Assembly: GCA_003427395.1 (NCBI GenBank)
Contig: BFEA01000032.1
Span: 4,907,489 to 4,971,488, forward strand
Direction of reading: 5' to 3'
DNA: 64,000 nucleotides
DNA from: Chara braunii
Taxonomy: Eukaryota; Plantae; Charophyceae
Positions 11,340-58,177 of the stretch are shown here, one piece after another. The position numbers and the translations under genes are program-made. The stretch's first letter is position 1, and every line of letters starts with the position of its first letter. Below the pieces are notes generated by a model, which was not told the origin of the DNA, did not search any database, and worked only from the letters and a program-made list of their open reading frames with translations.

Positions 11340-11499
11340 GGCGAACACTGGATCGAAGGAGAGAGAAGACACGAGAGAGTGAGTCAAGACTCAGAAGGTA
11401 GAACGGATACCACTTTTACGATGAAAACTCGCAAATTTGCTGAGCTCCCGCGTCGTGTTGCGAAATGGAAACTACTGCTACCCNTTTACACAAACTCTA

Positions 11500-24094: not shown

Positions 24095-25814
24095 CCATTT
24101 TTTGTTTCGTTCTCTTCCTCCCCGTTGCACCTCATACTGTGTTTTTCTTTTCTCAACCGTGTCCGCGGGTATGGCTATGTCATGATGTTGACATTCGCAT
24201 GGCAAACACGTCTACTCCTATTATGATTGTCCCCCCCTCGGTCTAATCCAATATATGAGCGCGTTGTCGTTCGTTGTTGCGTTGCCACCATCCATGTCTT
24301 TTTGCCACCGTCGTTCATGGATGTGAATGTTGGTGATGACAATACTCTTTTCGAGTCGCACGTTCGCGAATGGAAGGACATCAGCAACGACTAACATCAT
24401 CGAGGATAACATTCTTGTAGCCCCTGTGGACATATGCACGCACTTACATACACACACATACACACAGTTCGTCGCTCCAGTACACAATGTTGTACATGCG
24501 TTTGAACGCTCTGTGAACCTGATACATTCAGAATGTTGGAATTGTAAGAATGCATCTGGTCCAGAAATTGAGCAATTTCATGCCTAGTGTTGTGTATTGG
24601 AGCCCTCCTCCCACACGCGCATACATGGTCTAAATCAGAAGAAGGACAGGGTTGGTAAGTTGGGTTTAAGAACGGTTTTTCGGACAAGGGTCGATTGTAA
24701 ATAAGAACCTACCTGCGAAAGATGGTGGGAGACTCAATTTTTTTTTTTTTTTTTTTTCTTTTTCTTTTCTTTTCAAGTGAGATTGTGAGAGACTCGATCA
24801 TTTGTAGTATGCAGAGAAATAAGAATAGCGAAACTCATCCCCTTGACCTTGTTCTCTGACTCTATACTCGTATTCCATTTTTTCATTTTTTTTTCTTTCT
24901 GTTTCTCTTTTCTTTTCTGTTATTTTACATTTTACTAATCAACAGATGTCAAAACCACGCTCAAACCCGATTATGGAATACTAAGACAATGTGAACGAGT
25001 CTCGCGAAGGATTCTTGGGATGAAGAGACATAATGAAACTATTGGTTGTCTAAATGTTTTTACTTTTTCTTTTTCCTACTTTGTTATTTTTTTTTTACCT
25101 TTTTGCTTTTGATTTTGCTTGAATGTTTTTTCAAAGCTTCCAATAAGAAGAAAGGATGCACCCCAATCAACAGGTATATCTTCTATGAAATACGTACACC
25201 CCACTTGGCGAAAGATCGATACAAATCTATTAGCAACATGCAGGTATTACACAAAGAGACGCAGAAACTGTCGATGTTACCGATGGGTTTGCATGAGAGA
25301 AATCTCTGTTTTTCATGATAGGAAGTTTAAATGATCTATAAAGAGAAGCGTCGAGTAGTTTACACCATCAGAAACTCAAAGCGATTCATAGTGTGGAACC
25401 TACCGACTGCTTGAAAAATGGTGTTGTCTCTCGACGTTATCTGTTTTTTATGCTTCCTAGTGACATTTTTCTCAGGAAATGAACTTCCCACTCAAATTAG
25501 ATGTAGTAGCTGCTCACCGAGAGGCGAGCTTGGAGGAGGCGAAACTATCTCATGTCCTTCCGCAACCAAAATGATTACCTCATAATTGCTCTTTGCCTCT
25601 TCGGGTCTACCCCTCCCCCGTCCTTATTGTCGTTATGCTTTTACTATTCCCGCAAGTGGTTAATGACCTCCTGAAATTTCAGAATGAACTTTGTTTTGGT
25701 TAGCAGAGGTATGAAATCGCTAAAATGGCATGATGGCATTTCATGTTATTTCATAAGTTGCTCGTGGTTTGAGGGTTGATTTTTTTTTTTTTTTTTTTTT
25801 CAACGTTGCTGTCT

Positions 25815-26357
25815 GCCACTTCATGTAATTTCATGATTTTCAGGAAGGGAGATCTGAAACCTCTTAAATGACCTGAAATGGTTGAAGCTTCTGAAAGCGA
25901 TTTCCTGTTCCCTCATCCAAATGGTTGGATGGGGACATCTGAAACCACTTTTAAATTTTCAGCCACTTCAGGTCATTTCAGCAGTTTCACGTAAGGAGAT
26001 CCGAAACGTCTCAAATAACTTCAAGAGGCTAAGTCATCTGAAAACGGTTGGAGGTCCCCCCGTCCGAATAATTGGATTTGGGGACATGAAACCACTTTCA
26101 GAAGCTTCAACCACTTTAAGTCATGTTACGAGTGCCAGGTAGGGAAACTTGAAATGTCTCAAATTACTAGAAGTGACTGAAGCTTCTAAAAAAGGTTTCA
26201 TATCCCCCCATTTAATTGCTTGGATGGGGGGGCCTGAAATCGATTTCAGAAGCCTCGACCAATTCAGGTTATTTCAAGAGCTTCGAGTTGGATTTGAAAT
26301 CTCTGAAATGACATGAAGTGGTTGAAGCTTTTGAAAGCGGTTTCATGTTCTCCCATC
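25815..26357. repeat. Tandem array of ~147-bp palindromic units
   Basis: Units start at 25856, 26003, 26151 and 26296. Each is an imperfect inverted repeat centred on CATCCAA..TTGGATG. Confidence 0.85.
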
Positions 26358-27863
26358 AAAGTACCCAACACTCGTATGAAGTAGTTGATACCCAAAAATA
26401 AAGATATTTGTTAACCTTCTCTCTCTATTTTGCTTGATCTTGCTTCCGAATGGTGCCCTCGCTTACGCTTGAGCTTTTGCCTATCCTAGAAGGTCGCGTT
26501 TGCTCCAGTAAGGTTCCTTGTTGCGTATATCCTAGCTACTATTTGCTACGCCACCCTCGCCCCCACTCTCACCTTTGCCTTTTGCATCACTATTGTTGCT
26601 GCCATAACCTTTGGTCTCCTAGCTAGTAGTTGGACAAGAGTAGTAGCAACGCACGCACCACTTCGCGGAGACGGACTCAGGGTGCTGACTTGCATAGCGT
26701 ACGACGGAGACACCAAAAGGATTGCAAGATGACAAAAGTTGAGATATGAAATTCGCCCTTGTTTTTACAGGTGACATATATAAAATTTGAATTGAATTCG
26801 AAAACTTGAATGAGTGCGGTCAATTTCTCGACGGTCAACAATGTGGTTAATAATACGAGAAGATAGAAAGTGTATGGACGCGCAAGTTTCAGGTGAGCGT
26901 GATTTCCTTTTTGATATATCATGAGCCAATATTTTTACCGAAAAATTTTAACTTTTAATTAAATTAAGATTAAATGATTTTTTTCCTCCAGTTGATAAGT
27001 CTATTTGTGGCGTGTGTGCACAGGCGGAGGTGGCATCGTCATGGCCGACGTCAGGTCAGGTTATCGGTGCCGCGAATTAAAAGAGGATTACCTTTGATTT
27101 TATTTAAGGTGGCGGTTGAGTCCTCATAGTGCAAAAATAGTAAGGTGGGCGGTTACTATGCCTTTGGTTTAGACGGTGCGGGCAACCATCGGCCTCGACG
27201 TGCGTGAAGTTCGGCACAACGAAGGTCGGGATATCCGGTATCGAGATGGTAAAGACGGCCTCGAAAGAAGCGGTTAATTTTTGCGGAGACCAGCTTCGAT
27301 GATGGTGCGACCTTTATGTGGAAAACGACGCTTGCTACGTCCCGACTTGGGTTTAGCCTTTTTGGGTATGATACTATGTTTTTAAACTACAAATATAGGG
27401 ATCGAGGCCAACGACTGACGATGGAGCAATGAAGCAGCTTGAAGGGAGCCGGGAGGTTGAGGGTCTGAAGGAACTGTTGCTCTTGGTTTTGTCGCTGGTC
27501 CCTATCGCGGGACCAACTAGCAGAACTGGAATATGCTGCAAATGAGAGCTCGTGATTCTCACAGTCGCCAGTGGTAGTACGAAGCTAGAGTTAGAGGAAT
27601 GAATGTTTCTCCTTGGGAAAGTTTGACAATTGTTGGGGGCTGTGTATGATAGGCGGGTGTGAGTTACGAATGGTAAAATTGACCATATTAGTGCATGGCA
27701 ATGTGGCGTTTTGAATGTGTGTATATTTTGTGCAGATCGATTATTGGAGCTTGACGTGCCGTTGATGTTTTAGTTGAATGTTTGTGGGGCTTGATGTACA
27801 AGTCACTCCCTATAAACAGTGATAGTGACAACCATATGTCGCACGATCTACATATCTTATGAC

Positions 27864-28534
27864 CTGGTTAGCACCCCGTACGCGTACGCCATATGTACGC
27901 GTATGTATTCTGGCGTACATATACGAACCCAAACTCGCGCGTACTCGTACCTTAAAAAAAAAAAAAAAAAAAAAAATTATGTTGTGTAGAATAAGATAAA
28001 AACAAATTTTGCCTGGGAGTCATTCTCGAATTCCCAACCAACCTTGATTTAAAAATAAAAAAAACTTAAAGAGAACTTCAAAAAAACAAAACAAAAAGAA
28101 CTCTAGAATAATTTTTCAATTACTATGATAATATTACCTTTTTTTTGAGTTTTTTATTTTTAAATCGAGTTTGGTTGGGATATCGGGGATGACTCCCAGG
28201 CACAAGTTGTTTGTATCATAATTCTGCATAACATATATTTGTTACAAAAAATATTTTTATTTTTTATGTTTATTATTATTATTTTTTAATTTTAATTTAT
28301 GTGTTTTTGATTTTTAACTCGAGTTTGATACGAAATTTCGAGATTAGTATAAGACAAAAGTTGTTTGAAATATTATTTTGCATAACACACGTTTGTTTCA
28401 TAATTTTTCATTTTATTTTTGTTTTTTAACGTATTTCTACATACGGGAGTACATGTACGAGTGTACATGTCACGTACAAGAATACGTGTACGTGTGTACG
28501 CGCTACCCATGTACACGTACGCCGTGTTACCCAA
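27864..28534. mobile_element. hAT-type MITE
   Basis: TIRs CTGGTTAGCAC / GTGTTACCCAA, 8-bp TSD-like CTTATGAC / CGTATGAG, GTACGCGTAC subterminal repeats and an internal inverted repeat (~27978-28235). Confidence 0.7.
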
Positions 28535-32691: not shown

Positions 32692-35382
32692 GAGTATTTC
32701 ACGAGTGTTTTCTGCCCTGCGACTTTGGTGGTTGAGTGAGGGCGAGTAACATGGTAGTAGCATGAGAGGTAAAGGGGAAGTAGGGAACTGGGCTAAGGAG
32801 ATAGGCGCAATGAGAAAGAAAGTTCAAGAGGAGTGATACTTACCTCAAGGTTGACTAGTCACGCCTTTGCCTTGGTGAGCATTGCTTTGAAGTGTTTGAC
32901 ATCAACTGATTCATAGTATTAGTTTGGTCGTTGGGGCACAAATTAAGAAGCTAATGAAGAAAAGAGGAAGTCAATTGGTTGTTACTTCGAAATGCAATTC
33001 AATTGCAGTCGCTGTTTGAATCAGTGGTTGGGTGCTATATTAGTGATTGTGTCAAACTCATAACATCTCACTACGTTTATGATTGTACTCATAACATATA
33101 CTATTACTGTATTTGTAACTGGTTTGTGATATTAATGAATTTTCACGATATTCATAATTTTGTATGTGTCCCCGGCCTTCGTCCTTACTCATAGTTGTAT
33201 GTGTGTCCATATACTTTGTTCTTAGTTGTGTTTTTGTTTCGCGTACGTGTGTGTAGTTATACTTATGCATTCCCTGGTAATCGTCAAGCTAAACTTTTCT
33301 TGTCGGGAGTGCTTCTGCTCGTATTTAGACATGTTTGTTCTCGTGATTTGTGGTGCCCATGTTCGAGTTGCTGCAGACTCGCAGCCACATTTTTTACGGT
33401 TTCGATTGTATTCGTTACTTTAATGATCATGTTCAGAATCTGCTATAATCACAACATTATCATCATCATCATCATATTCAATTGTGATAATTTGTTTTCA
33501 CTAGATTCAATCACGATTATCATTTATCCCGACGTCGACCATGTTCGCCCTGTCTATCGGATTTAACGACGATCACGATCAACGTTTTTTCGTGAAGGCG
33601 GATTTGTCCCGACTTATAATCGTGGTTGCTTTGCCTTGGGACCCTGACCATTTTGTTGATCGCGTGTATTTGCTAGGAGCAACGAAACTTTTGTGGTTAC
33701 AATCCTTGTTTGCGTTTTTCTTATATTAAAATCATATTCGTTTTACTAGTAATCATAATCTTTTTTTTTTTTTTTGAATGATCACACTTATTTGTCACTT
33801 ATGGTCGGCTTCGTTCCTTCCTCGCGGTCATATTCATCCTTTCTCTACGACCATCATGATATTTGTTCCTTTTTGTCATTGCATGTATTTTTCTTTGTAG
33901 ATTTATTCATTTAATAGGGTTAACTTTGTTTGTAACGGAGTGTGTACAAAAAGAGAGAGTCGATACATGAGTAAAAAAACAAGAGAGCATAAGTTGAGGT
34001 AGATAGATTCGGAAGGAGGAAAAAAAAGAAGAGAGGAAGTGAGAATTTGAAAGAGAAGGGGAAGAAAAAACGTCTGATCAAAGGTTAACCTAACTGGTTG
34101 AACTATATAGTTCCCACTCGACCCATTTTGTTTATTTGCATAAATCAAGATAAAGGCACAATCAGATACATCCCGCTCGGTGTGCGTGATCATGATCGGT
34201 CATGCTGACTGTGCTGCGTAATTGAGTAGAATGAGAGAGAAAATGATGGAAAAGGTGGAAAGGAGAATATGAAATTACTAGAAGATTGTGAGGAGGAGAG
34301 GAGAAAAAAAATGGTAAAAGATAAGTGAAAAATAAGGTACATGAAAGAGCAGTGAGAAGGAGGGGAGAAAAGTAAAAAAAAGGAGAATAGAGTGAGAAAG
34401 GTAGGGGATTAGTGGTAAGTTTAGAAAACGATAATGAGGGGATAAAGGAGAGAGAGGGGAAATAAGTGGGGGGAAGTTGATTAGTGAGTAGAGGGTGATA
34501 CCCAATTCTTGGGTGGCCAAGAGCATAAAAATCACAAAGATCCTATGGATCTTGACTTCAAACACCCCTTTGGGAAAGAGGTCTTTAAGATGAGGATGAA
34601 CTGCTGCTGCAACAGTTGAATCTCATCGGATGGATCAGATCTGCAGATAAAAACTACATGCATATATCTGGGCTAGGCTGAGATCTTGATAAGCTACCCA
34701 GTTCTTACTGTACCGCAGCCCCCTAGCCAAGAGGGTCTTCAAGTTCAAAGCCCTCAGCAAACTGCCACGTGGCACTGCAGATGTGGCACGGGGCGAGGCC
34801 ATGTTGCTCGCTACTCGATGCTTGCCGATGTGGGGGGAATAATAAATAGTCGGTGTGACACTCTTCAACACCAGCGCGTCACTCACACTACCAACTCGTA
34901 AGTAGATTTTGACCACTGTGTTAAGGCAATGGCCACACACGCTGTCGTACCAAATACCCTTACAAGGGTATTTGGCGTGCTTTTTGTAAGTCACGCTAGT
35001 GCGACCTCGTCCGAGGTTGATGGCGCATTCGCGGGTGAGAGTTGAGTCCTTGCCCGGGTGAGTAGAGCGCGCGAGGTATTGACAGCAAGGAGCAACCATG
35101 TGCGACCCGGTTTGTGCACTGCGTCACAGGCCAGCGGGACGTGTGACCCCTCGCCCCGTTACTTTTTTTTGTTTCCTCGTGTTTATTCTTATTTTTATTA
35201 ATTTTATTATTTTACTTCATTTTTACGGTTATCTTTGACCCGGTGACCGGGTCCGAGACCGACGCCGCGCACTTGGGTCTGGCTCGACTACTACTTTGCC
35301 GGACACGGGCGGCCGTTACGGCAGTCGAGGACCTTGATCACCCGCCTCTTTCCACAGGCCCGCTTGGGTTCCGGCGTGTCCT

Positions 35383-35660
35383 GGATACTGGCAAAAATTC
35401 CTCTGTCTACCCGTCTTGATACTTGGACTGGGGAGTTCAATGTGCATGCGAGCCGGTGGGTAATTAGCCCACGAGGAGGAAAGAAACCTTGGTGGGGGGA
35501 GTCGCTGCGGGCGCACCGTCCGCCAACCACGGTGTGTTGTGACAGGTTTGAGTGCAAGCATGCTGACCAGGGGTCCACAAGGTGGTGAACTATGCCTGGG
35601 CGAGGCCAATGGGCGCCGGTAAAAGGTTCCCGCAGTGCTGGCCGCGCGGCCCAAGCCGTT
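35383..35660 (+). pseudogene. Degenerate 28S/26S rRNA fragment (sense) inside the LTR
   Basis: ACCCGTCTTGATACTTGGACTGGGGAGTT resembles ACCCGTCTTGAAACACGGACCAAGGAGTC. GGTGAACTATGCCTG follows at the expected spacing. Confidence 0.8.
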
Positions 35661-35671
35661 CCAGCAGCAGA

Positions 35672-35711
35672 CCACTTCGGCCCGCAAAGTTCTCATTTAA
35701 AGAATTGCTAC
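35672..35711 (-). pseudogene. Short degenerate 28S rRNA fragment (antisense to the LTR)
   Basis: CCACTTCGGCCCGCAAAGTTCTCATTTAAAGAATTGCTAC is a variant of the two longer copies. Confidence 0.65.
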
Positions 35712-35770
35712 AGCGGGGCCAGGGGGGCGCTGGTGGGAGGCTGCCGCAGTTTTTTGCTGTATGGCAAGGC

Positions 35771-35861
35771 TGTCCCAGCTGTTGTTCCATGGGACACCGC
35801 CCCCACCTCGATCTTCAAAGTTCTCATTTGAATATTTGCTACTACCGCCAAGATCTGCACC
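35771..35861 (-). pseudogene. 28S rRNA fragment (antisense to the LTR)
   Basis: Reverse complement GTGCAGATCTTGGCGGTAGTAGCAAATATTCAAATGAGAACTTTGAAGA is near-identical to a conserved eukaryotic LSU core. Confidence 0.92.
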
Positions 35862-35961
35862 AGGACCTGCGGGGTGGTGGAAGCCTGGGCAACCATGACC
35901 AAAGGATACACCGCCCGTTAACCTCAACCTGCTGCGAAAAGTGAGAGGGTTGGGTGTTGCA

Positions 35962-36210
35962 GGCCTGTGGGACCAGCAGCTGCGGACCCAGCTCAGTTGG
36001 TACACCCGCAAACTGCTGAAAATGGGCCTGTGGGAACTGCTGCAGCGGGCCTAGCTCAGTGGTACCCCCATGAACTGTTGAACAGGCATATGAGACCAGC
36101 ACCTGAGGACCTAGCTCAGATTGGTATACCCGCGGACTGTGGAAACATAGGCCCGTGGGAACAGCTGTCGGCAGGCCTAGCCCAGTTGGTAGACCTGCGG
36201 GCTGTTGAAA
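35962..36210 (+). repeat. Four tandem ~62-bp units, each a tRNA 5'-half with an A box
   Basis: CAGCTCAGTTGGTA, TAGCTCAGTGGTA, TAGCTCAGATTGGTA and TAGCCCAGTTGGTAGA, each followed by an anticodon-arm-like segment ending CTG(C/T)(T/G)GAA. Confidence 0.7.
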
Positions 36211-36407
36211 CACAAACCTGAGCTTAAACTCCACGGAAGGTGGGTGAGTGGGAGCTTGCGGGACATGTTGAAATACCGTTACTTTTATTTTTATTATTTT
36301 ATTATTGTTTATTACTATTATTATTATTATATTACTTATTCCAAGAGGTGGGGACTGAGCAAGGGGCGCCAGTGGGAGACTGCCACAATGTTGGCTGTGG
36401 AGCAAGT

Positions 36408-36686
36408 TGTCCCAGTAGTAGATTCACATGGAGCCCTTCCCCACTTCGGCCCCCAAAGTTTTCATTTGAATATTTGCTACTACCACCATGAGCTGCACCG
36501 GGCCCGCCTCACTTAGCTCACACTGCAGGCTGCACAGCAGGCCTGCGCCTTCCAGCTCATCGGGGAGTTGTGAAGGCCGATGTAGCCCTATCCCTTTGGG
36601 GCAAGCAGTCGGCAAGTGAGTTGATACACACTCCCTAGCAAATCTCAATTTCCACGACCACCACCACGCTGTCTGTATCAGCCACC
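36408..36686 (-). pseudogene. ~280-bp degenerate 28S rRNA fragment (antisense to the LTR)
   Basis: TTCACATGGAGCCCTTCCCCACTTC...TCATTTGAATATTTGCTACTACCACC...TCGGCAAGTGAGTTGATACACACTCCCTAGC...TTCCACGACCACC..GCTGTCT is colinear with LSU antisense. Confidence 0.88.
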
Positions 36687-37785
36687 AGTCGCTGAGGTGT
36701 ACGGGTTAGTGCGCAGTTTAGCGCAGATGGGAGGCAGCGGCTTAGCACAGGAAAGTGAGTGACGGGCAGCAGTGAAGAGAAGTGAACCTGGATAGGAAAC
36801 TGTGTCGGATGCATACAAGGCGAATTGGAGATGGCGGAGTCGATAAAAACGAATATGCCGACGGGGAAGAAGATGTTTTGCGACAGTTCCTCGATGGAAA
36901 CCGGCAAATGGAGGTTCGTTTCCTATGTTTTTGGCCAAGGCGAACCTAATGGCAGAGTAAGAAAGGGAAGTTAGTGGTTAGTTTTGGCGCTACAGAGGAA
37001 AAGTGGTGCGCGGGAGATGGCGGAGACGAGGAAGAAGGGGAGTGGGAACATTTGTATCTCGCTCGTTTCCGGACGAAATCGGGCGAGGGAGGACTCGAAT
37101 CGGGGGTTTTGGGGGTGGGAGACCCCGATTCTGAAGTCAGTACTGGTGAAAAGTCAGTAGAAAAGGAGTTAGTGGAGAAAGGAGCCGCGCGGAGGGATGG
37201 CAGAAGTAGATATGGCAAGGGTTGAAAAACAAAGATCTCACTCGATTCTGCACGGAATCGAGCGAACTAAAAGGCAGAATGGGGGTTTTGGAACATCACG
37301 AGTTCGATGGCGTGGTCAGTTTCTGTGATAAAGATACGGTTTTGGTGCTGCGGGACTCACGGGCTGCGCTGGGGAAAAGAAGGGCTGGAAAACGACAGTG
37401 TATCTTTCCATATTCTAGCGGAAGATACATTTTCATTTTGAACATTCGGTGGGAGAGTTTATTTGGTGGTCTTGCACTCTGCTGGTCACCTCCATTCTGT
37501 TGCTATCATCAGGGCTCAGTCGTTGTTGCCGGACACAGTCAAGGAGAGGGGCTGGTTGAGTTCGTCGCAGACGCCATCGAAGTCGTGGTGGTCGTATTTT
37601 GATCCACCAGTCCTGGCCATGTTCACGACCAGGTGCACTTGTTGGCTGAAGAGAGCGGGAAGGAGAACGGCGGGGGCTGCGCAACTACTAGTAAAGGCTT
37701 CAAAAATTTCAGATGTATCTTTCCGCGTTTTAGCGGAAGATTCATTCTACATTAGCACAATCTAATAAGGAGGGAGCATCAACGA

Positions 37786-37857
37786 GATAGATAGATAGAT
37801 AGATAGATAGAGATAGAGAGAGATAGATAGAGATAGATAGATAGATAGAGAGATATT

Positions 37858-37893
<36 letters not shown>

Positions 37894-37938
37894 GATAGAG
37901 AGAGATAGATAGAGATAGATAGATAGATAGAGAGATAT

Positions 37939-37997
<59 letters not shown>

Positions 37998-37998
37998 N

Positions 37999-38089
<91 letters not shown>
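37786..38089. repeat. (AGAT)n/(AG)n microsatellite inside the LTR
   Basis: Read directly from the sequence. Confidence 0.95.
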
Positions 38090-38092
<3 letters not shown>

Positions 38093-39769
38093 GGGCAACG
38101 ACACTCACCTCTAAGTGCTGGCGATGCGGAATGAGCGGAAGGTCGAGCTGTGGTGTCAGGCTGCAGAGCTCAACAACGGGAAAGATTCGTATGCATCTGC
38201 CCGGGTTTTAACAGAAAGATTCATTTTTACTGTGTGCCTTTGGTGGGTAGTGTAGCAAGGAGAACGTCATTCCCCGTGCTCGAGGTCGTCTTTGATGAAC
38301 CCACAGTCCGCTGTTTTCTGGTCGAGGTGGTGATCGTGCCCACTTTTGAGCATTGCAATGATGCTCTCCCTAAATCTGACTAGGGCCTGGGTCAGATGCA
38401 CCGAGTGAAGGTGGGCACAGTCATGATGAAGGGGGGGGTCGAAGCGAACAGGTATCAGGCGCGGAAGGAGGAAAGGCTATAGTGAGGCTAGAGCTCTCCT
38501 CTCATACTGATTACAATCAGATATAGAGAGAGATAAAGTAAGAAAGGGATGGGAGTGATGATGTAAAGGCACTTATCTGCTTATGGCAACAGCCTGTGCA
38601 TACAACATCTGCACGTATGTTGGTCGGTGCTGCTGACCGGATTGCTGCTCACAGTCCACGTTGCTGTGCATTGGCTCTGTGCTGCTGTAAGTTACTGCGC
38701 TTAAGCAGCCTGGACCTGCTGATATGCTTCATTGTTGTGCCTTGCTCAGAGTCTCCCGTGGTGCCTTTGCAACGCGGTTGCTGGTTAGTTTTTACGAATA
38801 TGGCTACCACTGTGCCTCGCTGCTGCTGGCGCCGTGTCTTTGTCATATCAACCGCGACACTTGCTGTGTGATACTGCTTGCTGGGAGCGGGTGCTAGTGC
38901 AGTGAAGAAGTGTGGAGGGCATAGGATTGGTCTGATTCAGTCTGTGTGCGCCTGGCTGCCTCCTCGCAGTTGTCTGTGCACAAGGACAGTGAAGTCACTG
39001 AAGTGCAAATCGTTTGTTGGACTTGGACATAGAGGCGGGGGACGTTGTCGGATGAGGAATTGGCTGACACATCACTTATTTTACCAGGCAACAAAGGGCA
39101 TTCTGAGCTGAGCTCAGCAAGATCTGGGCCTAGTGTTGGGTGCGGTCGGTCTTGCCACTTAGCTAGTTCAGAACTGCTGCCTGGCCTTGGGAATGTGCTG
39201 ACTGTGATAAAAAACAGACTGTTGTGGCTCTCTGGGAGGCTACTGTTGCAGCTGTTTTCAGAAGTTACTGTGATGACTGGTTCCTACCCGAACTACATAT
39301 TATTTTGGGACCGATTGTTACTACTCGAAGAGTTGTTGTTGTGTGATGGAGTACCGTTTGATGCTCCCAACTTCAGTAGGAGTTGCTTTTTTAAGAGATT
39401 GATGTCGCTGCTCCTAACTACTGTTATGAGTAGAGGCGTGGTTATGTGATCAAGAAAGATTGTTGTTACTATGGGGTTACTGTGGTACTTGGTGAGGCGC
39501 TGCACTGCAGCGACTGCGCACAACTGTTGTGCACGCAGTGCCTCATTGTGCTTTGGCCGCACATGTGCGGTGTTTTCTTGGGGGTGTGCTCTGCTTGAAC
39601 GCACCCTTCTTATGTTACGTAGTGACAGTTGGTCGGAGGGGGTAGCTTTGCGAGTTGAGGGAAGGAAACTGACTCTGCACAAGGATCATTGTTGCGGCTT
39701 GGACGACAGTCGGGAGGTCAACATTCGGCGTTTTGACTTCAGTTTGGCGGTATTACTGCGATTTTGGCC

Positions 39770-40036
39770 ACCATTGCGGGACCCTCAGGCGCACAAAGAT
39801 TATAAGGCCCTCTCCAGCGAGTCTGAGAGCACCCTTCTTGAATCTGAGAGATTGAATCTATCTCTTTCTGCCCTTCTTTCTGCAAGTCTAGTCTATTTGG
39901 TTCTGAGAGGAAGGCGGCAGGCGGGATTGCAACCCGTAGGACCGCAACAAGACTCTGTGGGGAGTCTGCCCACCGATTGCGGGAGCTCTGCTGGAACTCA
40001 TGAGGAGTTCTGGAGGCAGGGAACTGAAAGGTAACC
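39770..40036 (+). promoter_or_regulatory. Putative LTR promoter, first exon and splice donor
   Basis: Most conserved block versus 62060-62325. TATAAG lies at 39801, and conservation drops at AG|GT (40031; 62320 in copy F). Confidence 0.6.
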
Positions 40037-40341
40037 ATTGCTTTCTTTCTATAAACCCGGTATAACCCCTATCTGTATTCCCTGTGACGTTTCGACTGAG
40101 TAAATTGCATGCATCCCTATTTTGACTTTCAGTTTGACTTTCAGGATGAACCAGATTAAATAAAGGAATGTATGCTTAATCTCAGTTTCAACTTTGTTTT
40201 TTGACTGAAAGCAGATTGTAAAAAGGGAATGCATCTGGGAAAGCGTAGGATGGAACGCAGTTTTTGCGTGAGGGTTGACTGGGTCAATCGACTTGTTTAT
40301 TTTGGGGTTTCCTCTGTTTATTTCGTTCTTAACGAGGAGGT

Positions 40342-40906
40342 CTGAGCCATTCTATAAGTTTAGGTGGCTCAGCCTCTTCCTGCTTTTACTTAGAGGAAAT
40401 GAACTTGACAGAGGGTAGATCATTCTATAAGTTTAGGTGGTCTAGCCCAATGCCACGCACATATTGGGTCAGAGAGAAACGAATCAGGTAGAGAGTCAGA
40501 CTGTTCTGTAAGTTCAGGTGGTCTGACTCAAAGCCTTGCACATGCTGGAACCCAAAGGTTATAACTTGACTATATTTTATTACTATCTTATTTAAGAACA
40601 GGCTAGTCGGACTATTCTATAAGTTTAGGTAGTCTGACTATAGCTTATCACAACCTGAAGAGAGTATTAATTAAGAGTAAATTGATGGTAAGATGGGGCA
40701 AACTGAATTTGAGTTTGGTTCAGTCATATGCAGCCTGAAAAGACTAAGTGCAGACAATTATATATAACTTGGATATTTTAAACAGTTCAGGGCGACTATA
40801 ATGGTCTAGTCATATGCCCAAAGAATAAAGAAGTAGTTGTGCCCTTTGTTTTGTGTATACTTATCGGCTAAGTTAGACACATTCCATAAGTTTGGGTGGT
40901 CTGACC
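40342..40906 (+). repeat. Array of UAAGUU-loop RNA hairpins (5 intact, 2 decayed)
   Basis: Loops at 40355, 40428, 40509, 40620 and 40887 are closed by CTA/TAG, CTG/CAG or CCA/TGG, with covarying outer stems. Confidence 0.85.
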
Positions 40907-41214
40907 TTATGTCTTATGTAAGCAGGGTATAAAGGGTTAAATCCTTGAAAGATCATGAACTATTGTTGTCTAGATAAACTTGGGATGGTGAGAGTACTTA
41001 CCTTTGTGGTTTGACCTGCATGTGGCCGAGTGAGGTTACTACTTGGTCCGAGTTTCAGTTTGATAGGTAGTTGCTTTAGTCGCTCGGCACGTGCTAGAGC
41101 TGTAAGAGTTAGTTTCAATTCCTGCATTTTCCGAGCTAAGTTTTTTTTACTTAGATCAATTATCGCATTTTCTGGGATCATTTTTTTTTATTTGGCTTTG
41201 TATAAATCTTGACA

Positions 41215-41760
41215 AGTTACTTTCTCTACGGTAAGCGCTGCCGAAATTTCTACAAATCCAAGAGGTAGTCAATTGTTGACTTGTCAAAGTTCAACTTGTA
41301 TTTTTTTTATATATGACCCAGTAAAAATCTGGAAAGTTTCCTTTTCTAAAGAGAGTGCTGCCCAAATTTTTGCTAATTCAGGGAGTTAGACAAAATTGGA
41401 CTTTGAGAAGTCAAAGTTACTTTCAAATTCTGGACTTAGCCTTGTATAAATTTTGGAATAACACTTTTCTAGAGGGAGTGTTGCCGAAATTTCTGCAAAA
41501 GCTAAGGAGTTAGTTAAATCATGTCTAAGTTGAACCCAAGTTATCTTTTTAGTTCCTATCTGACTTAGTATAAATCTGGGAAGTCTCTCTTTCTAAAGGG
41601 AGTGCTGCCCAAATTTCTACTAATTCAGGGAGTTAGACAAAATTTGACTTTCCAAAGTTAAAGATTATTTATGCTTTCATATGTGGACTTATATAAATTA
41701 TGGAAAGATACTTTTCCTACGGGAAGCGCTGCCGAAATTTTCTTAGTTTGAAGGAGATAT
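41215..41760 (+). repeat. ~120-bp tandem subrepeat in the LTR
   Basis: TTTCTA.AGGGAGTGCTGCC.AAATTT...GGAGTTAG occurs about 5 times. Homologues lie at 63555-63965 and, inverted, at 56450-56600. Confidence 0.85.
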
Positions 41761-43030
41761 ATTATATTTTGATAGGTGATGATTCTGGTAATCCACTCTG
41801 AATAGGGAAGATTTTGCCATGAGTCTACCTTTCTTTGGGCACTTGCTTAGAGGTAGGCTTATATATAGTTAACTAGGATGATTTGGGTAAGGTCATGATA
41901 TGGAGATTGTTCTCCATGAACTTATAGGTTTAGCCTGGGGCATTTACCTGTCATGTGTTACAGGTCCTCTTGATCGTTTGATTCAAAATCCGGACTAGAT
42001 TCAACTTGATCCCTTGAGGGTCATCCTCTGTTATCACTGATAACAGGTCGGTTGCCGATTCGTTGGTTTGCGATTCAACTCCAATCCACTCTTGCCACTC
42101 AACCTAAATGCTTTAGCCCTGTGGTTTGAATTGTTTCATTGTGTTTTCACCCAGACTTTATTTTGAATGACCATTTAAGGAAAAAAAACTGAGTATTTTA
42201 CTTTGAGGAGTTGCACAAGAGTGAGGCTTGTGTGGCTAAAGGCAAGGGGTGTGAGTGCAGAGAATGGTTGAAGTTGACCCCGTATAATGCATGGACTTTC
42301 TGGATGAATCTTTGATGTGATTGCAGATATGCTTGGTGATTCGGACTTGGGATTTGACTGTCTGCGCTCACATACATATATATATGGCTGAGAGGAGTCT
42401 CACTGTGACTGTGAGAAGTGATCGTCCTATATTAATAACCCTCTATATATATGTGTATGTATATGTCTTGAGTGTTTCGTGCGGCTTATTGTGACCGCGC
42501 GTAAGAGTTAAACATATTATGTGTTTGAGAGAAAAGGGAGATCCCCTTTTATCTTGTGTTTTTTAAAGATTTTTATACTCGGACGTTTGTCCTGAGCCGA
42601 GATTCAAGGTCCTTATCCAGGACATCCCAAACCCTAGACTCTGCAGGGAAGAAATCTGTCCCCGTGCAGAGCCTACTTGCCTTGCGTACCGAGACGCTCA
42701 GACCAAAGGTGGGAGGTCTCGCGGCGGCTGCACGACTATTCCTTCAGCCGTGCAATATCGTGAGGGATCAGACCATCACGATACTTCGAGTCTGACACTT
42801 GAGAGCCATAAGTGGTACTCGGATCCACGAGGGACCGCTTGATTACGGGCACTACATAGTACGCCATCATTGCGACTGCTTACGTACGCTTGCATTACGA
42901 GTCGGTATGAGTTAGTCCTGCGTCCGCGCGGTTGTATACTAATTCTCGCGCGCGACGCCTATTCGATTCCCGCATCGGAAAGTTATGGGATGACTACCAA
43001 AGAGACTGGGAATGTCGTCGCGTTGTTTGA

Positions 43031-43064
<34 letters not shown>

Positions 43065-43534
43065 TTTTTTGCGTTCGTAGAGTGGTGTGCACGTGGTGTG
43101 TGGGATGCGTCCTAGTCGACCGACGACGAGTCGCACTTGGGACCGCACCCCCCCAAGATGGCGGTCTGCGTGCGGGTCCGATAGAGGCGTACTACCGCAT
43201 GTACCCCCTATGCTACAGCGAACGAGAAACACCCTCGGCTGGTGCACCTCTGCGATTGCAGCTGATTAGCTTTCGTAATGTGGACTGGTAGCTCGACGGG
43301 GATACGCCCACCGAAGGGAGGTGACAACTCCCATAAGGTGGAGGTAAGGCGTGCCTCGCGTAGGCCCTGTCCTGTCGTAGGGGCTCGTGAGAGGTATGGC
43401 TGGCGCACTCGGCTGGAGCGGCTTGCGGAAGCTCCATGTATATTCGCGATGAGAATTATATCCAACTCCTGCGTGACGCGGCCGGGAGGGTCCCGCGCTG
43501 CCCTATGAGGTGCCGGACCAATGCGCTCGACAGG

Positions 43535-43552
43535 TGGCGCCGTTGCCGGGGA
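43535..43552 (+). promoter_or_regulatory. Primer-binding site for tRNA-Asp(GUC) (Athila-type)
   Basis: TGGCGCCGTTGCCGGGGA is complementary to the plant tRNA-Asp 3' end TCCCCGGCAACGGCGCCA, 2 nt after the LTR-terminal CA. Confidence 0.92.
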
Positions 43553-44981
43553 TAGCGGTTGCCTGCCGTTGTCCCTGGTGGAACGACATCCGGGTATGAA
43601 AAAATAAAAACTAGGCTAAATGAGAAACTTTCTTTAGACATATATGGTCGATTGCTTAATACCTTGACTATCATTGGAGATGTCTGAAGACTGTGACCTA
43701 AATATGAGGTGGTTATTATAAGAGGTCAAGCTGAGTCACCCTCCCCTGGTCGATAAAGCCTTGGTTTTGAGGGGGCTTCTGATATGTGAGCGACATGGAT
43801 GAGGGAGTGACTGATAAGTGCGAAGTGAGGGATTTGATGACAAAACTCTTTCCTTGAATTCATATTGAATTATGGTATGATAGGTACTGTCTGCCTAAAT
43901 CCTTTAACAACATCAGTTGGCGGTGAGTTGAGTTACCTAGCAGATTGTCTAGATGTAACGACCGATAAAAGTTTGAGACGTAGTGACTATTTAGCTAGTG
44001 ATTTGGCTAACCTAAAGAGAGACATACATTTTAAGTATACATAAAATATATGTATATATATTTGTTTTTTTGATAATTTTTATCTGGTTGGTGCCATATA
44101 TGCGTTTTTGTGTATTTTGTTTGAGGTCTGATTGATGACGTATGTATGAATTGTCTTTTGAAGAGGACATAGCCTTTGCACGAAACCCACATCTGGCATG
44201 GGACCAGAGGTGAATGGGGGTGACTCATTCCTGGGGAATGTGGTTCTTCCCAAGGAGAGTTAGTCAGCATATATAATTTGTCCTCAGTGAAAGTGCATTC
44301 TTGAATTGTTATCCCCTCGCTGAGACTTAAGGAAGCATTTATTAGTCTCAAGGATGATAGTGAGACGCACGCCGGAATTATGTTCCTGGTCCATGAGTGG
44401 GGTATTATTGCTTTTCCTATGATAGGAGAGTATTTACACTATTTGTTGAGAAAAAAAGGAGTTTGTTATCTTACCGAAACTGTGATGGCCAAGTGGAACA
44501 GCTACTGCTTAGTGAGAGCGGTTCTGGAGTAGCGACCTAGGCTCGTCTCGCATTGAGCAGGGCCACCATATTTGTAAAGGAGCGAATTCACTATTCGTTG
44601 CCTTAATAGGTATGAATGGGGTTGTCCACCTGACGATGATTAGGTTCGGTGAGGTGCAGACGCCGGAATCAGAGGGGATTGCGGTGAGGCTTGATTTTTA
44701 GAGCGGGGCTCAAGAGTCAAGATGTTGTCTCATGAGGATTACACCGTCTCTCAGTACTTTATGCTTCGCTTAAGAGCTGAAGGGGTAACTATTGTACTCG
44801 TTCAACAGAAAAATTGTCGCCGAAATTCAACAAAATTTTTTTTTGATGTCTAACTTATTCACACCAGAAAGGGTGTGACCAACTGTTGAAACTGGGTCTT
44901 CTGCTGTGTTCAACTACTCATCAACATTATCAACTTATTCCCAACGAGTTCAACATGGTTTCCAACGAGTCCAACATGGTT

Positions 44982-47703: not shown

Positions 47704-47792
47704 GTTCTTCGGGACATCCGTTAAAATTGGAACGATATAGAGAAGATTAGCATGGCCCCTGCGCAAGGAATAATGCGTATAAAACGGGGAGA
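47704..47792 (+). ncRNA. U6: U6 snRNA-derived copy embedded in the LTR (variant or pseudogene)
   Basis: GTTCTTCGGGACATCCGTTAAAATTGGAACGATATAGAGAAGATTAGCATGGCCCCTGCGCAAGGA matches the plant U6 core. ACAGAGA has become ATAGAGA (47738), the 3' end is divergent, and no USE/TATA lies upstream. Confidence 0.92.
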
Positions 47793-50700
47793 GGAACGAG
47801 AATTTCGGGTTTTCGTTTTGGGGATTGGTTTCACTCTCTCGCTGCAACACTCTTTGCTACGAGGGCGGATCGCTATTTCGCTATTTGGCAGCTGCACTAT
47901 GAGGCGGAGGCTGGCGAACGGGAAGTACGAGGCAGCGGGGGAGGGAATAAATGTGGACGCAGTCTCGTGCAAGGGACACTCCTAGTAGAAAAAGGGAGGC
48001 GCCGGGGCAACGGAAGCTGCGAGCGCCGGTGGTGCTGATCGGAGCAGGGCGCCGGGGAACGAAGGTGCGAGGGAGCCAGCGAACCCGGCACGCTGCCGGG
48101 GCCAGGTGCATTCGGAGGTAGAATAAGCGGAGCTGCAATGATGCGCAGCGTGGCGGACTGACGGGCGCTATGGGAGCGTGGAGTTGAGGTAGCGACGGCG
48201 GGTGCTGGGGACATGGAGCGCATCGAAGAGCTGCGGGGGGGGGGGATGGACGTTGAATCAGCAGTCAGGCAGAAGGGATAAACCTGGTTGGACTAGTGCG
48301 CCAGGTGCATGCAAGGGAAAGTGGAGATGGCGGAGGCGAAGTGAAGGCAGGGCGCAGTCAAGGAGGAGTGGCGTAACCGATTTGCGGTGGAATCGAGTTA
48401 GGGGATACAACTGGCGTTAGTACGGAGGCGACAAGGGGAGAAAGAAATAGGAATGAACCCGGACGTGGGGTGCGCCGGGTGCATTCGGAGCGAAGAGGAG
48501 GTATGGCGGGGTGGATAACTCACAACTCGCCCGTTTCTTAGCCAAATCGGGCGAGCGAAGAGTTGATTTCGGGGGTTTAAAGGTGGGCGACCCCGACTGT
48601 AGTGTTAGTTTTAGGATTAGATTAGTAGATTGTGAGTTAGTGAGAAAGTCAGTGAGGGGAGCTATGGCGGAGAGATTAGGGGGTGGGATGACGACCGGAA
48701 AACGCCCGTTTCTCTACGATAGCGAGTGTCTACGGGGTCGAAACTGGCAGTCGAGTATGGGGTTAGATAAGAGAAATAGTTAGCAGGAGGAGAGTTAGAG
48801 GAGGGATGGACTGCGAGGGGTGAGGAGGAGAGGAGATTCGAATGAACCCAGATGGGTTTCCGCGTTAGGTACATGCAAAGGAGGGAGGGAAAAAAATATT
48901 GATCCCACCCATTTCCTGATGAAAACGGGTGGGAGAAAGGTCGACTCCAATGTTTTTCGGCAGGGCGGATTTGAAGTCGGTTCAGTCAAGGAGTTAGCAG
49001 TTAGTGAGCTAGAAAAAGAAAGGTTATGCGTGAGGTGATGGACATGGCCCTTTCGGGCCGAAAAGGTCGCCCGTATACATCCATTATTATTATTATTATT
49101 ATTATCCATTGTCATTGTTATATTATATTTATTATTATTATTATTATTATTTTTTATATTTATTTATTTATCTATTTATTTATTTATTTATTTATTTTTA
49201 CCCTACCATCACGATCGGTGGTTCCTCCGTATGAGCTGCTGTTCAGAAAGTACGAACATGACGTGATCGCAACAAGCTGGGGAGAAGAAGAAGAAGAAGA
49301 AGAAAAGGGGAGAAGAAGGGGAAAGGAAAGGAGGCGAATGGTGGTTCTTGGGTGTATGAGACATCTGTGAGTGGGGGATCGAGGTTGTGAGTGGTACGAG
49401 AGACATACCTGGTGCTGAAGGCGTGCAACATTGATCGCCATGTGCTCGTACTTCGGGAATGCTTTTGACCTCATCTTTCGACTTCATAGTATAGGCTAGA
49501 TAGGATCTGTCACATGTAGTCCTCCTAGTGAATCACATCTTCCTAGTGGATCATACCTAGTGGAAGTCCCCCGCGCGACTTCCCCTCCCCGCTTCGCACT
49601 CCTTCCCCCCCTCCCCCCACGCCCGTGCCATACCCCCCGCACATTTCTTTCCCCACCTACTTCGCGCTCCCTCTCCTACCCTCGCGACACATGGCACAAT
49701 AGGACAAGGCTTACAAATCATCGAACATCATAGAACTTGCCCGTTTTGTTTTTTTTTTCGTTTTAAAATTAATTCTTTTCGATTTTTTTTTTTTTTCGCA
49801 GTTTGTTTTCTTTTTCATAGTCAGCAATTATTATTCTCTTTTCCTTGTCATTTATCTTTCAAAAATTAATTTCGCAATTAATCAATTTAACCATTTTCAA
49901 ATACTTTTGAATCTTGATTTTTTTTCCGAATATTTTGCATTTCGAAATGAATTTCTTCGGAAATACCCTAAAATTTCATTTACTCCACCCAAAAATTGCA
50001 TTTCCGTTTTTGAAATTCCAAAAAGTTTTTCTTGCAAATATTTTAATTACTTAAATAATTAAACTCCGAAAAAGAACCAAATCAACATTTAAATCCAAAT
50101 TCAACTTTCTTTTCGTTTTAAAAATTCTCGAATTTCTTTTTCAAATTTCGTTGTATTTTTCTCGAATTTAACCTTTTTTTTTTCCAACATTTCTTTTATT
50201 TTTTCAAAGTAATTTAAAAATCCCGATTTAAATTATTTTCATAATTATCAATTAAATTCGTTAAAAGTTCAAAATAACCCCCCAAAGTATAGCATTTGTT
50301 TTTTTTTTCCATTTATTCCAATTTTAAAATTTCCGCATTTTGTCACAAAAAATAGCCCGAAATTTTTTATTGTCATTTAAAATTTCTTCCTCCCGAAATT
50401 TTTAATTGTCATTTACTAATTTTTTCCCTTCCTCCCGCCAACCTCTCCCAAAGTTCCAATATTTTTCCTCTTCTTCTATCTTCTCCCCATTCCCCCATCC
50501 CTCCTCTCCCATCACACCCAATTGGTCACATCATCTAAAATTTCTAATGCGTGTGACACGTATATCCTCTTTTTGTGTTTGTTTGACAATGCCGTTCATC
50601 GTGCTGTGTGAAACACCAACCTAATTCGGTGGGATCAATCTTCGTTCTGTCTTCTTCCAACGCCGCAAACGGAATAAATTTCGGCCATTTTGTTCAAAAG

Positions 50701-54962: not shown

Positions 54963-56979
54963 CCTGTCGAGTGCATCGGTCCCGCAAGGAGACCCTCCGG
55001 ACCGCGTCACGTAGGATTTGGAGCGTGGTTTGCCGCTCCAGCCGAGTGCGCCAGCCGTACCTCTCGCGAGCCCTTACGATAGGACAGGGTCACGCTAGGC
55101 ACGTCTTACCTCCACCCGCGGAAGTTGTCACCATCCCTTCGGTGGGCGTATCCCCGCCGAGCTACTGAACCACGTGCGAAAGTTTTTCGTTTGCAGTCGC
55201 AGAGGTGGTTCGGTCGAGGGCGTTTCTCGTTCACTGTAGCATAGGGGGTACGCGCGGTCAACGCCCCTCAATCGGACCCGCACGCGAATCTACGCATTGG
55301 GGGGTTGAGGTCCCAAGCACAACTCGTCGTCGGTCGACTAGGACGCATCCTACATATCACGCGTTACACTACAATACTCACACACACGGAAGGACACAAA
55401 ACAAACAACACAATAACACAACAACACTCCCAGTCCCTTTATTGCCTGACCCATTACCTTTTAAAATGGAAGTCGGTTAGGTGTCGCTCGTGAGACTCAA
55501 GATAAAATAACGCAGGCGCAGTGCTTTTTCATATCGACTAGCCATGGAAGCATACGCAAGCAGTCGTAATGATGAAGTAATGTGTGGTAGTCAAAATCAT
55601 GCGACCCTTGATGATCTCGGGGGTCACATTTTGACACTCAAGTGTCGGCTGACACTCGCCTTGAGGGGTTAATCTTTTGGCGCTAGACAACCGCCAAGGC
55701 GGTTGATCACCACACCCTCTTCTGCACCCTATGGAAAGTGGGTGGTACACAGGTTCATACCTGTGGTGACAATCGTCTCTTATTGCCCTGGAGACCAACT
55801 CCACCATCTAGAACGTGGATAAAACTCAAGGAGTTTGACTTTGACGGCTGCCACGGACTATAACGTCCAACTAAAAAAACAAAAAGGATGAAAGGGGAAT
55901 CTTCGTTTTCTCTCAAAGTATAATCTGTTTAACCCTTGCACACGGTCACAATGGGTCGCGCGAACATCCAACGTGTAACTTCAATCATTCTTTGCGCTAA
56001 CACCCCTCGCTTTAGCCATACAAGCCTCTCACTCTTTGTGCAACTCTCAAAAAAAAAATACTCAGTATCTTTATTAAATGGTCATTCAAATAAAGTCCGG
56101 GTAAAAACACAACGAAACAAATCAAACCACAGGGTTAAAGCCTTCAGGTTGAGTGGCAAGAGTGGATTGAAGTTGAGTCGAAAACCGACAAATCGGCAAC
56201 CGACCTGTTACTAGTGATAACAGAAGATGATCCTCATTGGATTAAGTTGATGCTAGCCCAAATCTTGAATCAATTTGAATAAAGATGGCCTGCAATGCAG
56301 CACAGCCCAGTGCCCAAGCCATGCTTGAGTGATCATGAAATAAACCTACGTTCCTCATTAGCCTCCGATGTTTATAAAAGAATGTCAGGAATTTTGACAT
56401 ATATCCCTTGAAGGGCAGATTGTCGAACCTTCAAGTTCTAAAATACCTTAACTCCTTTAAAATATAAAAAATTTCGGCAATGCTTCCTGTAGGAAAAATG
56501 CCTTTTCATAATTTTCAAGTGTCAAAAAATGACTAACTCCTCCAAATCTGTAAAATTTCGGCAGCGCTTCCCGTAGGAACAGGAGACTGCCAAGATTTAT
56601 ACAAAGCTGAAAATGCAAAGACAAAGTACAACTATACTTGGGACTAACTTCTGACAGTTACTTGATAGTTAGAACCGGAGATAGTCTGCACGATCCCTTC
56701 TTGAAGATGGCATCGTGAGCTAACACCGATCCTAACTCCTAGTAGGGCCAGTCCTATCTTATCCCAAGTTTCCCTCCCACCATCCATCTCACCTACCTAA
56801 AGTTCTAGCACTCAGCGAGCATCTAAAACAACTAAGCTATCAAAAAGATGCCCCAAACGATTGTCCACAAACATGCATAACAAACATCTCTCTCAGTCCC
56901 ACATCAGCTTAATCCGAATCGTTCGTTAATCTCTCAATTTTTTTGACCCTCAATAACCCCCTTTCCTATGGCATAGGAT

Positions 56980-58177
56980 CAGACCGCCCCAACTTAAGGG
57001 TACGCCCGAGTGAAACAAATAGGGTGCGCACAACTAGACTGCCCCAACTTAGGGGTATGCCTAGCTTCCATGACAGAAACGTGTGTGCAGACTACCCCAA
57101 CTTAGGGGTATGCCCAACCCAACATTAACTGTGCACATAAAGCATATGACCAGACCGCCCTAACTTAAAGGTACGCATGACTTTTTCTTAACTGACGACA
57201 TGAGGCATATGACTGGACTGCCCTAACTTAAGGGTATACCTAGTTAGCCTTAAACGAAGTTTACGTAGGGCATATGATTAGACTGCCCCAACTTAGGGGT
57301 ATGCCTAACCTGCCTAAACAGGTACAAACGACGAATGGTCAGACCGCCCTAACTTAAGGGTACGTCCAACCTACATAACATTAACGACGCTAAACCGCCC
57401 CAACTTAGGGGTACGGCTAGTTAGCCTAAACAGTTTAAGATACATAAGGCAATGTGACCAGACCGCCCTAACTTAAGCCACAGGTCCCCCCGCCACCGAA
57501 AACCCCTAGTCCCTGTGTTAGGGCCGGTTTGTACGGAGGGGCGGCGACCGTACGGAGGCGTCGGGTTGTGCGGAGACCGACGGGTCCAATCCCACCATTT
57601 TGCAAGCGGCAACTTTGCCGATTTTTTATGCTCAAAAGAAGTCATGAAAATATCTGAAAATTTGAGCGTCTGTAGATTAGGTCATGATCTTTCAGGGAAA
57701 AATATCAGAAAAAATAAAATAAAAATAATTTTCACGGTGAAATATTCGCCGCGCCGATTCGGTTTATTTTCATTTTTTTTCGCAAATTTCGTACGGAGGC
57801 CCGCCCGGTTTTCCGCGCTGTACAACCGGTACCCGTCGTGAAACGGCGCTACCGGTATCCCGAGGTTTTTGACGTTAGGGGGACCTGTGGTGCCTGATCT
57901 GCCTAAAACAAGTTACAAACGACGTATGACTAAGCCGCCTCAACTTAGGGGTACGCTTAGCCTCCGTAACAACAGTTCAAACATTCATGAATACTTTCAT
58001 ACAAACTTAATAATTTCAGTTCTTCTTAGGCAGATGATCAGACCGACCCAACTTAGGGAGACATCCAACCCTGCCTTGTGTTTAAAAGGGAAAAAAAAAA
58101 AAAAATTATACTAAAACGCTGCCCCTTTTTGTGTTATCACGAGCATAAAACTGAACCGCGCTAACTTAAGGGTACGC
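56980..58177 (-). repeat. Array of 12 UAAGUU-loop hairpins with variable spacers
   Basis: Plus-strand GACYGCCCY-AACTTA-RGGGTAYGC with loops at about 56991, 57046, 57099, 57162, 57225, 57290, 57351, 57402, 57470, 57942, 58050 and 58163. Confidence 0.9.
57478..57890. mobile_element. ~410-bp MITE inserted into one hairpin unit
   Basis: TIR CCACAGGTCCCCC / GGGGGACCTGTGG with GTACGGAGG subterminal repeats. No clear TSD. Confidence 0.8.

Follow-up and report, generated by a model that had tools for sequence, protein, structure and literature searches.

Hairpins with a constant tip and covarying stems in a long LTR of Chara braunii: a possible response element for an RNA-binding protein

What holds the loop of a hairpin constant from copy to copy, while the stem that carries it changes? 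This question is raised by a window of 64,000 nucleotides from Chara braunii (contig BFEA01000032.1, positions 4,907,489 to 4,971,488). Here, a first-pass annotation had noticed hairpins around a fixed TAAGTT loop, and had read them as multimerised protein-binding RNA stem-loops under selection, analogous to psi or to nuclear export elements. The array is real. It spans positions 40338-40908 of the plus strand and consists of five hairpins, here called type A after the element that carries them, and two units that lost their tip.

40338-40376, plus strand: type-A unit 1, with bulged U, inner stem CUA/UAG and UAAGUU loop at 40355
40411-40449, plus strand: type-A unit 2, loop at 40428
40492-40530, plus strand: type-A unit 3, inner stem CUG/CAG, loop at 40509; the tip is deepest in the DNA contigs
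40603-40641, plus strand: type-A unit 4, loop at 40620
40695-40731 (approximate), plus strand: tip-less unit, outer stem retained; its counterpart in the related LTR B (63011) has a full tip, and the same loss occurs in the related locus L004
40790-40819 (approximate), plus strand: tip-less unit, outer stem retained; B counterpart (63125) with a full tip, same loss in L004
40870-40908, plus strand: type-A unit 5, inner stem CCA/UGG, loop at 40887; the outer stem needs a shifted register

The loop is fixed in all five units, and the inner stems are as first described, CTA/TAG in three units, CTG/CAG in one and CCA/TGG in one. The three outer stems quoted with them are exact in the sequence. Each unit follows one plan: an outer stem, a single U left unpaired in the 5' arm, a stem of 3 bp and the UAAGUU hexaloop. 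The unpaired U between inner and outer stem, present in 8/8 aligned type-A units, had escaped the annotation, as had the two tip-less units. The spacers, described as unrelated, are so among themselves, since no tandem repeat found by TRF spans the array, but they are orthologous to the spacers of related LTRs.

By itself the hexamer is barely enriched in the window (50 occurrences against a mean of 40, with at least 50 in 3/100 shuffles). Fourteen of the 50 are hairpin loops, five in the type-A array, eight in a second array at 56976-58177 (minus strand) and one elsewhere. In a strict fixed-register test of the architecture 4/5 units passed, while dinucleotide shuffles gave one match in 6/2000 and two in 0/2000. 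The minimum-energy fold of the sense strand, in which all five units fold as drawn, has -172.8 kcal/mol (z -3.99, 0/100 shuffles); the antisense fold is weaker (-144.6 kcal/mol, z -3.01). Neither an Rfam family (cmscan, at the gathering score and also at E up to 1) nor a tRNA (ARAGORN) was found over the array, and the exact type-A tip had no match in the viral or metagenome contigs scanned.

The array is set in the long LTR of element A, to which the following features belong or relate.

34943-43532, plus strand: LTR of element A; the end TCGACA was read directly, the start TGTCG placed by collinearity with B and the deleted solo LTR
39764-40030, plus strand: conserved block, putative first exon, common to all subfamilies and with the strongest stranded RNA signal
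40031-40144, plus strand: predicted short intron, with the donor AG/GTA and, by eye, the acceptor TCAG/GA, both in A, B and L001
41180-41780, plus strand: degenerate repeats of about 124 bp, inside the LTR and 3' of the array
43535-43552, plus strand: primer-binding site; the same motif follows LTR C at 54962 (minus strand)
18848-19461, minus strand: deleted solo LTR of 614 bp, with a mutated start, the first-exon block (39764-39910) and the LTR end, without the array

The LTR of element A is at least 3.8 kb long (39683-43532) and probably about 8.6 kb, with nested insertions possible in its 5' half. Its termini are TG and CA within a short inverted repeat (TGTCG at 34943, TCGACA at 43532), the start at 34943 being the probable one for A. 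The 614-bp solo copy has both motifs at its ends, the start in mutated form, and TGTCG further occurs as a start motif at 45671, 46568 and 58178. Two further copies of the region 39683-43634 are present in the window, B (61977-63991, plus strand) and C (down to 54862, minus strand). In A and C the terminal TCGACA is followed by GG and by an 18-nt primer-binding site starting with TGG (43535; 54962, with one change), which we take to be of the tRNA-Asp type. Because the solo LTR joins the LTR start, the conserved block and the LTR end, the array lies within the LTR, with its end about 2.6 kb 5' of the primer-binding site. The solo LTR (19461-18848, minus strand) lost about 3.5 kb including the array, at a short shared sequence. 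A 3' UTR before a polypurine tract was considered as the location and rejected, as the array is flanked by the LTR start, the first-exon block and the LTR end.

The internal parts of A and C have apparently been cut by other insertions, and no 3' LTR lies within the window. A Pfam scan of 183/195 listed ORFs (12 with Ns or simple repeats were left out) gave no Gag or Pol in ORFs of at least 85 aa after either primer site. Downstream of the primer-binding site of A, a broken ORF-like stretch (44248-44787, plus strand) shares about 60% DNA identity with C and is a candidate extra ORF. Its remnant at 44305-44529 had no Pfam match and no homologue, which is weak evidence. In two DNA runs of one sample the contig depth was 10-66 over 38200-39648 and 9,000-53,000 in the array, with conserved blocks at up to 370,000, from which we infer that the family of element A is very abundant, contig depth not being a copy number.

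The hairpins are likely multimerised RNA stem-loops under selection, as first proposed: their arms covary, G-U exceeds A-C on the sense strand, the tips show no common variant in 718 and 631 contigs, and sense reads were recovered at a low level. In an alignment of eight type-A units, five from the window and three from L004, 89.6% of the cells are paired and 10/12 pairs changed on both sides, with 0/500 shuffles in all five measures. Slid registers gave 24-46% paired cells. Pairing of each arm with its own partner ranked best among the permutations of the five window units (1/120), and 3/40,320 for all eight. The units of type D, from a related LTR, are 89.4% paired, with a covariation score of 0/500 and two pair-count measures not significant. 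Those of type C (10/12 units, two damaged ones dropped) are 89.2% paired, with a score of 2/500 and pair counts not significant; all covariation p-values are optimistic, because the units share ancestry by duplication.

Such pairing could also be a by-product without function, if template switching in the course of reverse transcription makes or repairs short inverted repeats and passes tips from unit to unit, and if CpG decay mimics compensation. The two-sided changes among the five window units are transitions only, in a region depleted of CpG (observed/expected 0.43). For this reason the covariation claimed for the inner stems, while based on compensating pairs that are present, is weaker than it first appeared. 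The tip-less units, the array-less solo LTR, the range of unit number and joints in the DNA contigs that skip or repeat units all fit a by-product. However, neutral decay should leave A-C about as frequent as G-U, and the G-U to A-C ratio in type A is 16:2 (p 0.007 against local composition, p 0.076 without the fixed U-G column). Elsewhere it is 24:6 in C (p 0.06), 11:4 in the outer stems of B (p 0.25) and 6:3 in D (p 0.61), none significant alone; pooled over the four types, 57/72 are G-U (p 0.002). In addition, 35/39 units fold better in sense than in antisense. Neutral decay should also leave single-sided intermediates, whereas the closing pair has no variant of 12% or more on either side in units 2 and 3, although both forms are common. 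CHG is not depleted (observed/expected 1.23), so CTG/CAG against CTA/TAG is not due to CHG decay. Nor would palindrome repair make a fixed bulge and a fixed asymmetric loop. Transversion compensations occur in two columns of type A once L004 is included, and in 3/5 columns of type D, a type in which one column holds all four Watson-Crick pairs. Taken with these points, a functionless origin appears very unlikely.

Among orthologous copies, tips are the most and outer stems the least conserved, both between A and L004 (identical in 28/32 tip, 272/334 spacer and 37/49 stem positions) and between B and its relative L002 (159/168, 373/419 and 91/112). Of 16 outer-stem pairs that changed between B and L002, seven are paired in both and eight in one only, the latter indicating that single copies do decay. 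A family-wide check was made on units 2 and 3 with the two DNA runs of one sample (718 and 631 contigs, 80% likeness). A frequency of at least 12% was reached by 17 variant rows; the bulge, inner stem and loop held none of them, and eight were at spacer positions. Stem variants at 40440, 40444, 40494 and 40502 still pair, and that at 40445 amounts to a bulge. Variants at 40496 and 40503 break pairing unless the partner changes as well; the matching change would be at about 11%, below the 12% cut-off, and L004 has it for 40503. Contig depth is highest at the tips of these two units, and depth and variants back constraint without proving it, because read placement favours conserved stretches.

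The first-pass reading would have lost its footing if the array were silent; low-level sense reads indicate that it is transcribed. First mates on the minus strand stand for plus-strand RNA in most libraries. Such mates were obtained from a stranded poly(A) run (X7; 6% read, 216 reads placed), in which sense and opposite reads, derived from depth, were about 90/4 over the first-exon block, 15/2 over the array and 17/10 over 40937-43020. Per DNA depth, sense reads were 24.5 in the first exon, 9.7 in the array and 1.1 after 40937, a drop of about ninefold. Units 2 and 3 had further reads in sense direction, two in X7 and four in X9, with none opposite, while run X8 showed both directions, roughly followed DNA depth and was little informative. 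All these RNA counts, obtained with raw reads of the same species, are low, and the reads stem from diverged copies.

Since the downstream blocks are common to all subfamilies, most transcripts with the first-exon block appear not to run beyond the array, although splicing to a distant acceptor could also explain part of the drop. The 15/444 joints listed held no spliced read across the predicted intron, whose acceptor in A lies 114 nt after the donor. Read ends did not pile up. For one loose read end, at 40024, a search of the window that allowed up to five differences gave no match, and no splice target was found. The array likely lies in a long R region, after the predicted short intron and just before the drop in sense RNA. 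In that position short LTR transcripts would carry it as well, and the array alone could not distinguish full-length RNA from them.

Psi lies 3' of the primer-binding site and is therefore present in genomic RNA only. The array, in contrast, lies inside the LTR, far upstream of this site and likely in R, and by position the analogy with psi proposed in the annotation is a poor one. A likeness to psi and to packaging-signal arrays of RNA viruses is seen in the several bulged hairpins with fixed loop and variable stems, and in the place of the array 3' of a predicted splice donor.

A position in R would also suit hairpins that aid reverse transcription, through the first strand transfer or through pausing of the enzyme, either as RNA or as single-stranded DNA. 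Conservation of long R regions has been linked to stem-loops (accessible part of PMC3601003). Yet homology is what strand transfer requires, rather than a constant loop and bulge carried by stems that vary freely, and such a role leaves the change of the tips as a set unexplained. The hexamer of type-A spacers that is complementary to the loop is not kept in other copies either, and we consider this role improbable. Pairing of the loop with AACTTG in the spacers, as a pseudoknot, was also considered. Three such sites exist in A and four in L004, but one in L001 and none in C, and other copies vary at the site that precedes unit 2; the pseudoknot was set aside.

Related LTRs hold an array at the same place, with 5 to about 19 units, and the tips are of four types. 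Two further arrays lie in the window.

62575-63239, plus strand: type-B array in LTR B (start 58178), eight units with another tip on the same scaffold
56976-58177, minus strand: type-C array, 12 units in which a 4-bp stem with a 3x2 internal loop carries UAAGUU; truncated at 58177

When metagenome contigs were scanned for a downstream motif common to A, B and C, four loci came up, whereas the viral and prokaryote contigs scanned had no match to it. L004 is a relative of type A (82% identity) and L002 of type B (86%), L003 has one A-like unit, and L001 a further tip type, D. In place of the type-A tip, 8/8 type-B units have CAUU-12 nt-AAUG with an unpaired G. Type D comprises 17 units with CA-UAAGU-UG on variable stems; these were chosen by the hexamer, and two more are visible with changed loops. 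The part of L001 that lies 3' of the array aligns with C at 78%. Among type-A-like units the loop is exact in 8/10, the exceptions being one unit in L004 and one in L003, which were kept out of the alignment and which the model matched weakly (E 0.01 and 0.019). Spacers and outer stems allow A to be aligned with B, but not one tip is the same in both. From one subfamily to another the whole set of tips changes, on a scaffold that is retained.

Several details of these arrays were seen in passing. Element B inserted into a hairpin unit of C at 58177. In L001, the stretches 2340-2750 and 3130-3540 suggest that the type-D array expanded by internal duplication of several units. At the internal loop of type C the two purines are both G (7) or both A (4), never one of each, possibly a non-canonical pair, and both changes are CpG to CpA, which confounds them with CpG decay.

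Fixed tips, freely covarying stems, pairing on one strand and many copies argue for a multivalent protein-binding RNA element. Because all tips change together between subfamilies of one species, we propose that its partner is encoded by the element. Tentatively, and with a little less than even confidence, we favour the array as a multivalent response element for a putative element-encoded RNA-binding protein, working by analogy like the retroviral elements RxRE and RcRE. Each tip would bind one copy of this protein, either a Gag nucleocapsid or the product of an accessory ORF, with loading that would be cooperative across several tips. Once coated, the RNA would undergo export and capture into particles, in the manner of Rex on RxRE or Rec on RcRE. 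Stems could drift freely provided that pairing holds. Protein and tip would co-evolve, so that tips would change as a set and each subfamily would acquire its own RNA address. Against an element-specific response element speak the type-A copies that spread with two tips lost and the solo LTR without an array. No partner protein was found in A or C: Pfam gave no Gag or Pol in the scanned ORFs, and the remnant had no homologue. UAAGU(U), moreover, is common to 3/4 tip types, which suits a host protein equally.

In this alternative, a host RNA-binding factor on the hairpins would control 3'-end formation, stability or export. It might let transcription of the 5' LTR continue past its poly(A) site, or else protect a short transcript of the LTR, about 1.1 kb long and ending behind the array. 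Relative to DNA depth, sense reads do fall right after the last unit, and in A, B and L001-L004 this unit is followed by a conserved TATGYCTTATGTAA block. Types A, C and D present UAAGU(U) on stems that differ, which a constant host protein would favour. UAAGU corresponds to positions +2 to +6 of the 5' splice-site consensus, an identity that fits a host factor, but the G of the splice-site GU is not conserved before the loop. Type B has another tip in the same genome, and the missing pile-up of read ends also counts against such a factor. UGUAA as a poly(A) signal was rejected, since the accessible part of PMC1868727 reports this signal as absent in streptophytes. On balance a host factor seems rather unlikely, though more probable than an aid to reverse transcription.

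Palindromes in the LTRs of Sireviruses raise another alternative, that of sites acting at the DNA level, for a transcription factor or an anti-silencing protein, or of precursors of small RNAs. As far as the accessible text of PMC4728375 goes, Ji/Opie LTRs carry 7.3 copies each, near-perfect and located before the TATA box, with the arms more conserved than the centre. Both are family-specific, multi-copy, hairpin-forming motifs inside a plant LTR. In the Chara array, however, a fixed centre (loop and bulge) sits on covarying arms, one strand is favoured by the G-U pairs, and the location is within the transcribed part, so that neither the arm conservation nor the place upstream of the TATA box seen in Sireviruses was found. 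A DNA-level or small-RNA role therefore receives little credence from us.

The preferred reading, a response element for an element-encoded protein, finds its closest analogues among export elements, which appear to fit better than psi. The best match would be with those located in an LTR: RxRE of HTLV-1 sits in the 3' LTR (accessible part of PMC9523361), and RcRE of HERV-K(HML-2) is a structured element of 433 nt in U3 with a proven partner (PMC11379458, as far as accessible). Like them, the Chara array is a structured RNA element inside an LTR, present in sense transcripts, though at low read counts. The further likeness we propose is an element-encoded protein that would be loaded for export of intron-containing RNA. 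In contrast to the single RcRE, the array is made of discrete small hairpins, 5 to about 19 in number, with four types of tip in co-resident subfamilies and a partner that is so far putative; its host, unlike that of RxRE and RcRE, is a charophyte alga.

A bolder and rather doubtful extension is an RNA address code, in which every unit, 5 to 19 of them, would receive a new tip as a subfamily diverges with its own RNA-binding protein. In addition, thousands of LTRs, solo ones included, would release a polyadenylated non-coding array RNA of about 1.1 kb as decoy or scaffold. If this holds, each subfamily would claim only its own RNA. How plant LTR retrotransposons select, export and package their RNA is largely an open question, and four tip types on one scaffold in one species offer a natural swap experiment, in which tip and protein can be crossed between subfamilies. 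A real code would place response elements of the Rev/Rex kind outside retroviruses, and would provide a case of concerted evolution of a multivalent RNA signal. No prior description of the array or of tip swapping was found in the literature searched, most subscription papers and genome-paper supplements being outside its reach.

Apart from the array, the family itself stands out by its unusually long LTR and by a preference for NCGN targets. NCGN precedes 5/5 LTR starts (ACGC, CCGC, CCGA, ACGC and CCGA, left flanks only, at a CG frequency of 0.044). The solo LTR flanks, CCGA and CGGA, are one base apart, and no complete target-site duplication can be read. Just inside each of the five starts (34943, 45671, 46568 and 58178 on the plus strand, 19461 on the minus strand) lies a short hairpin. 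A 4-bp NCGN target is reported for Phygy only, within the accessible part of a survey (PMC6317226), and the flanks resemble it, unlike the 5-bp duplication of Athila, which has no sequence preference. Phygy, however, has a total length of 7.7-10 kb, a coding-filled interior and a tRNA-Trp primer, whereas the LTR of A alone, at 3.8 kb or more and probably about 8.6 kb, is too long for such an element. It would also exceed the LTR maximum of "about 5 kb" given in the same survey (PMC6317226, accessible part), according to which 72% of Athila elements use a tRNA-Asp primer. With Retand, Ogre and Athila the family shares large elements, long LTRs and family-specific arrays without an assigned function (PMC11963269 and PMC6317226, both as far as accessible). 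The Retand arrays are head-to-tail tandem repeats between pol and the 3' LTR, and "hairpin" and "stem-loop" do not occur in the accessible text (PMC11963269). The Chara array, in contrast to these, lies in the LTR and has unrelated spacers.

Some other features of the window were recorded. The degenerate repeats of about 124 bp occur at 41180-41780 and 63516-64000 (plus strand) and at 56510-56640 (minus strand), with a core identical in A, B and C. The 5' part of the LTR starting at 46568 holds a captured U6 snRNA copy (47704-47805, plus strand; full-model match, 72 bits), and the probable 5' part of LTR A a fragment of large-subunit rRNA (36581-36687, minus strand; E 2e-8). A broken Ty3/Gypsy-type element of another family lies at 348-3470 (minus strand), with Gag and RT remnants. 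For a Gag fragment of another element in the window, 10/10 matches were Chara braunii proteins, at up to 84% identity over most of the query, and no homologue at near lengths was found. Repeats of different kinds include a 147-bp repeat with inverted symmetry (25812-26360), an imperfect palindrome of 273 bp (27971-28243) and a repeat of 305-330 bp (22496-23271). A C-terminal fragment of histone H2A (15229-15501, plus strand) lies within a 470-bp inverted duplicate of 10923-11396.
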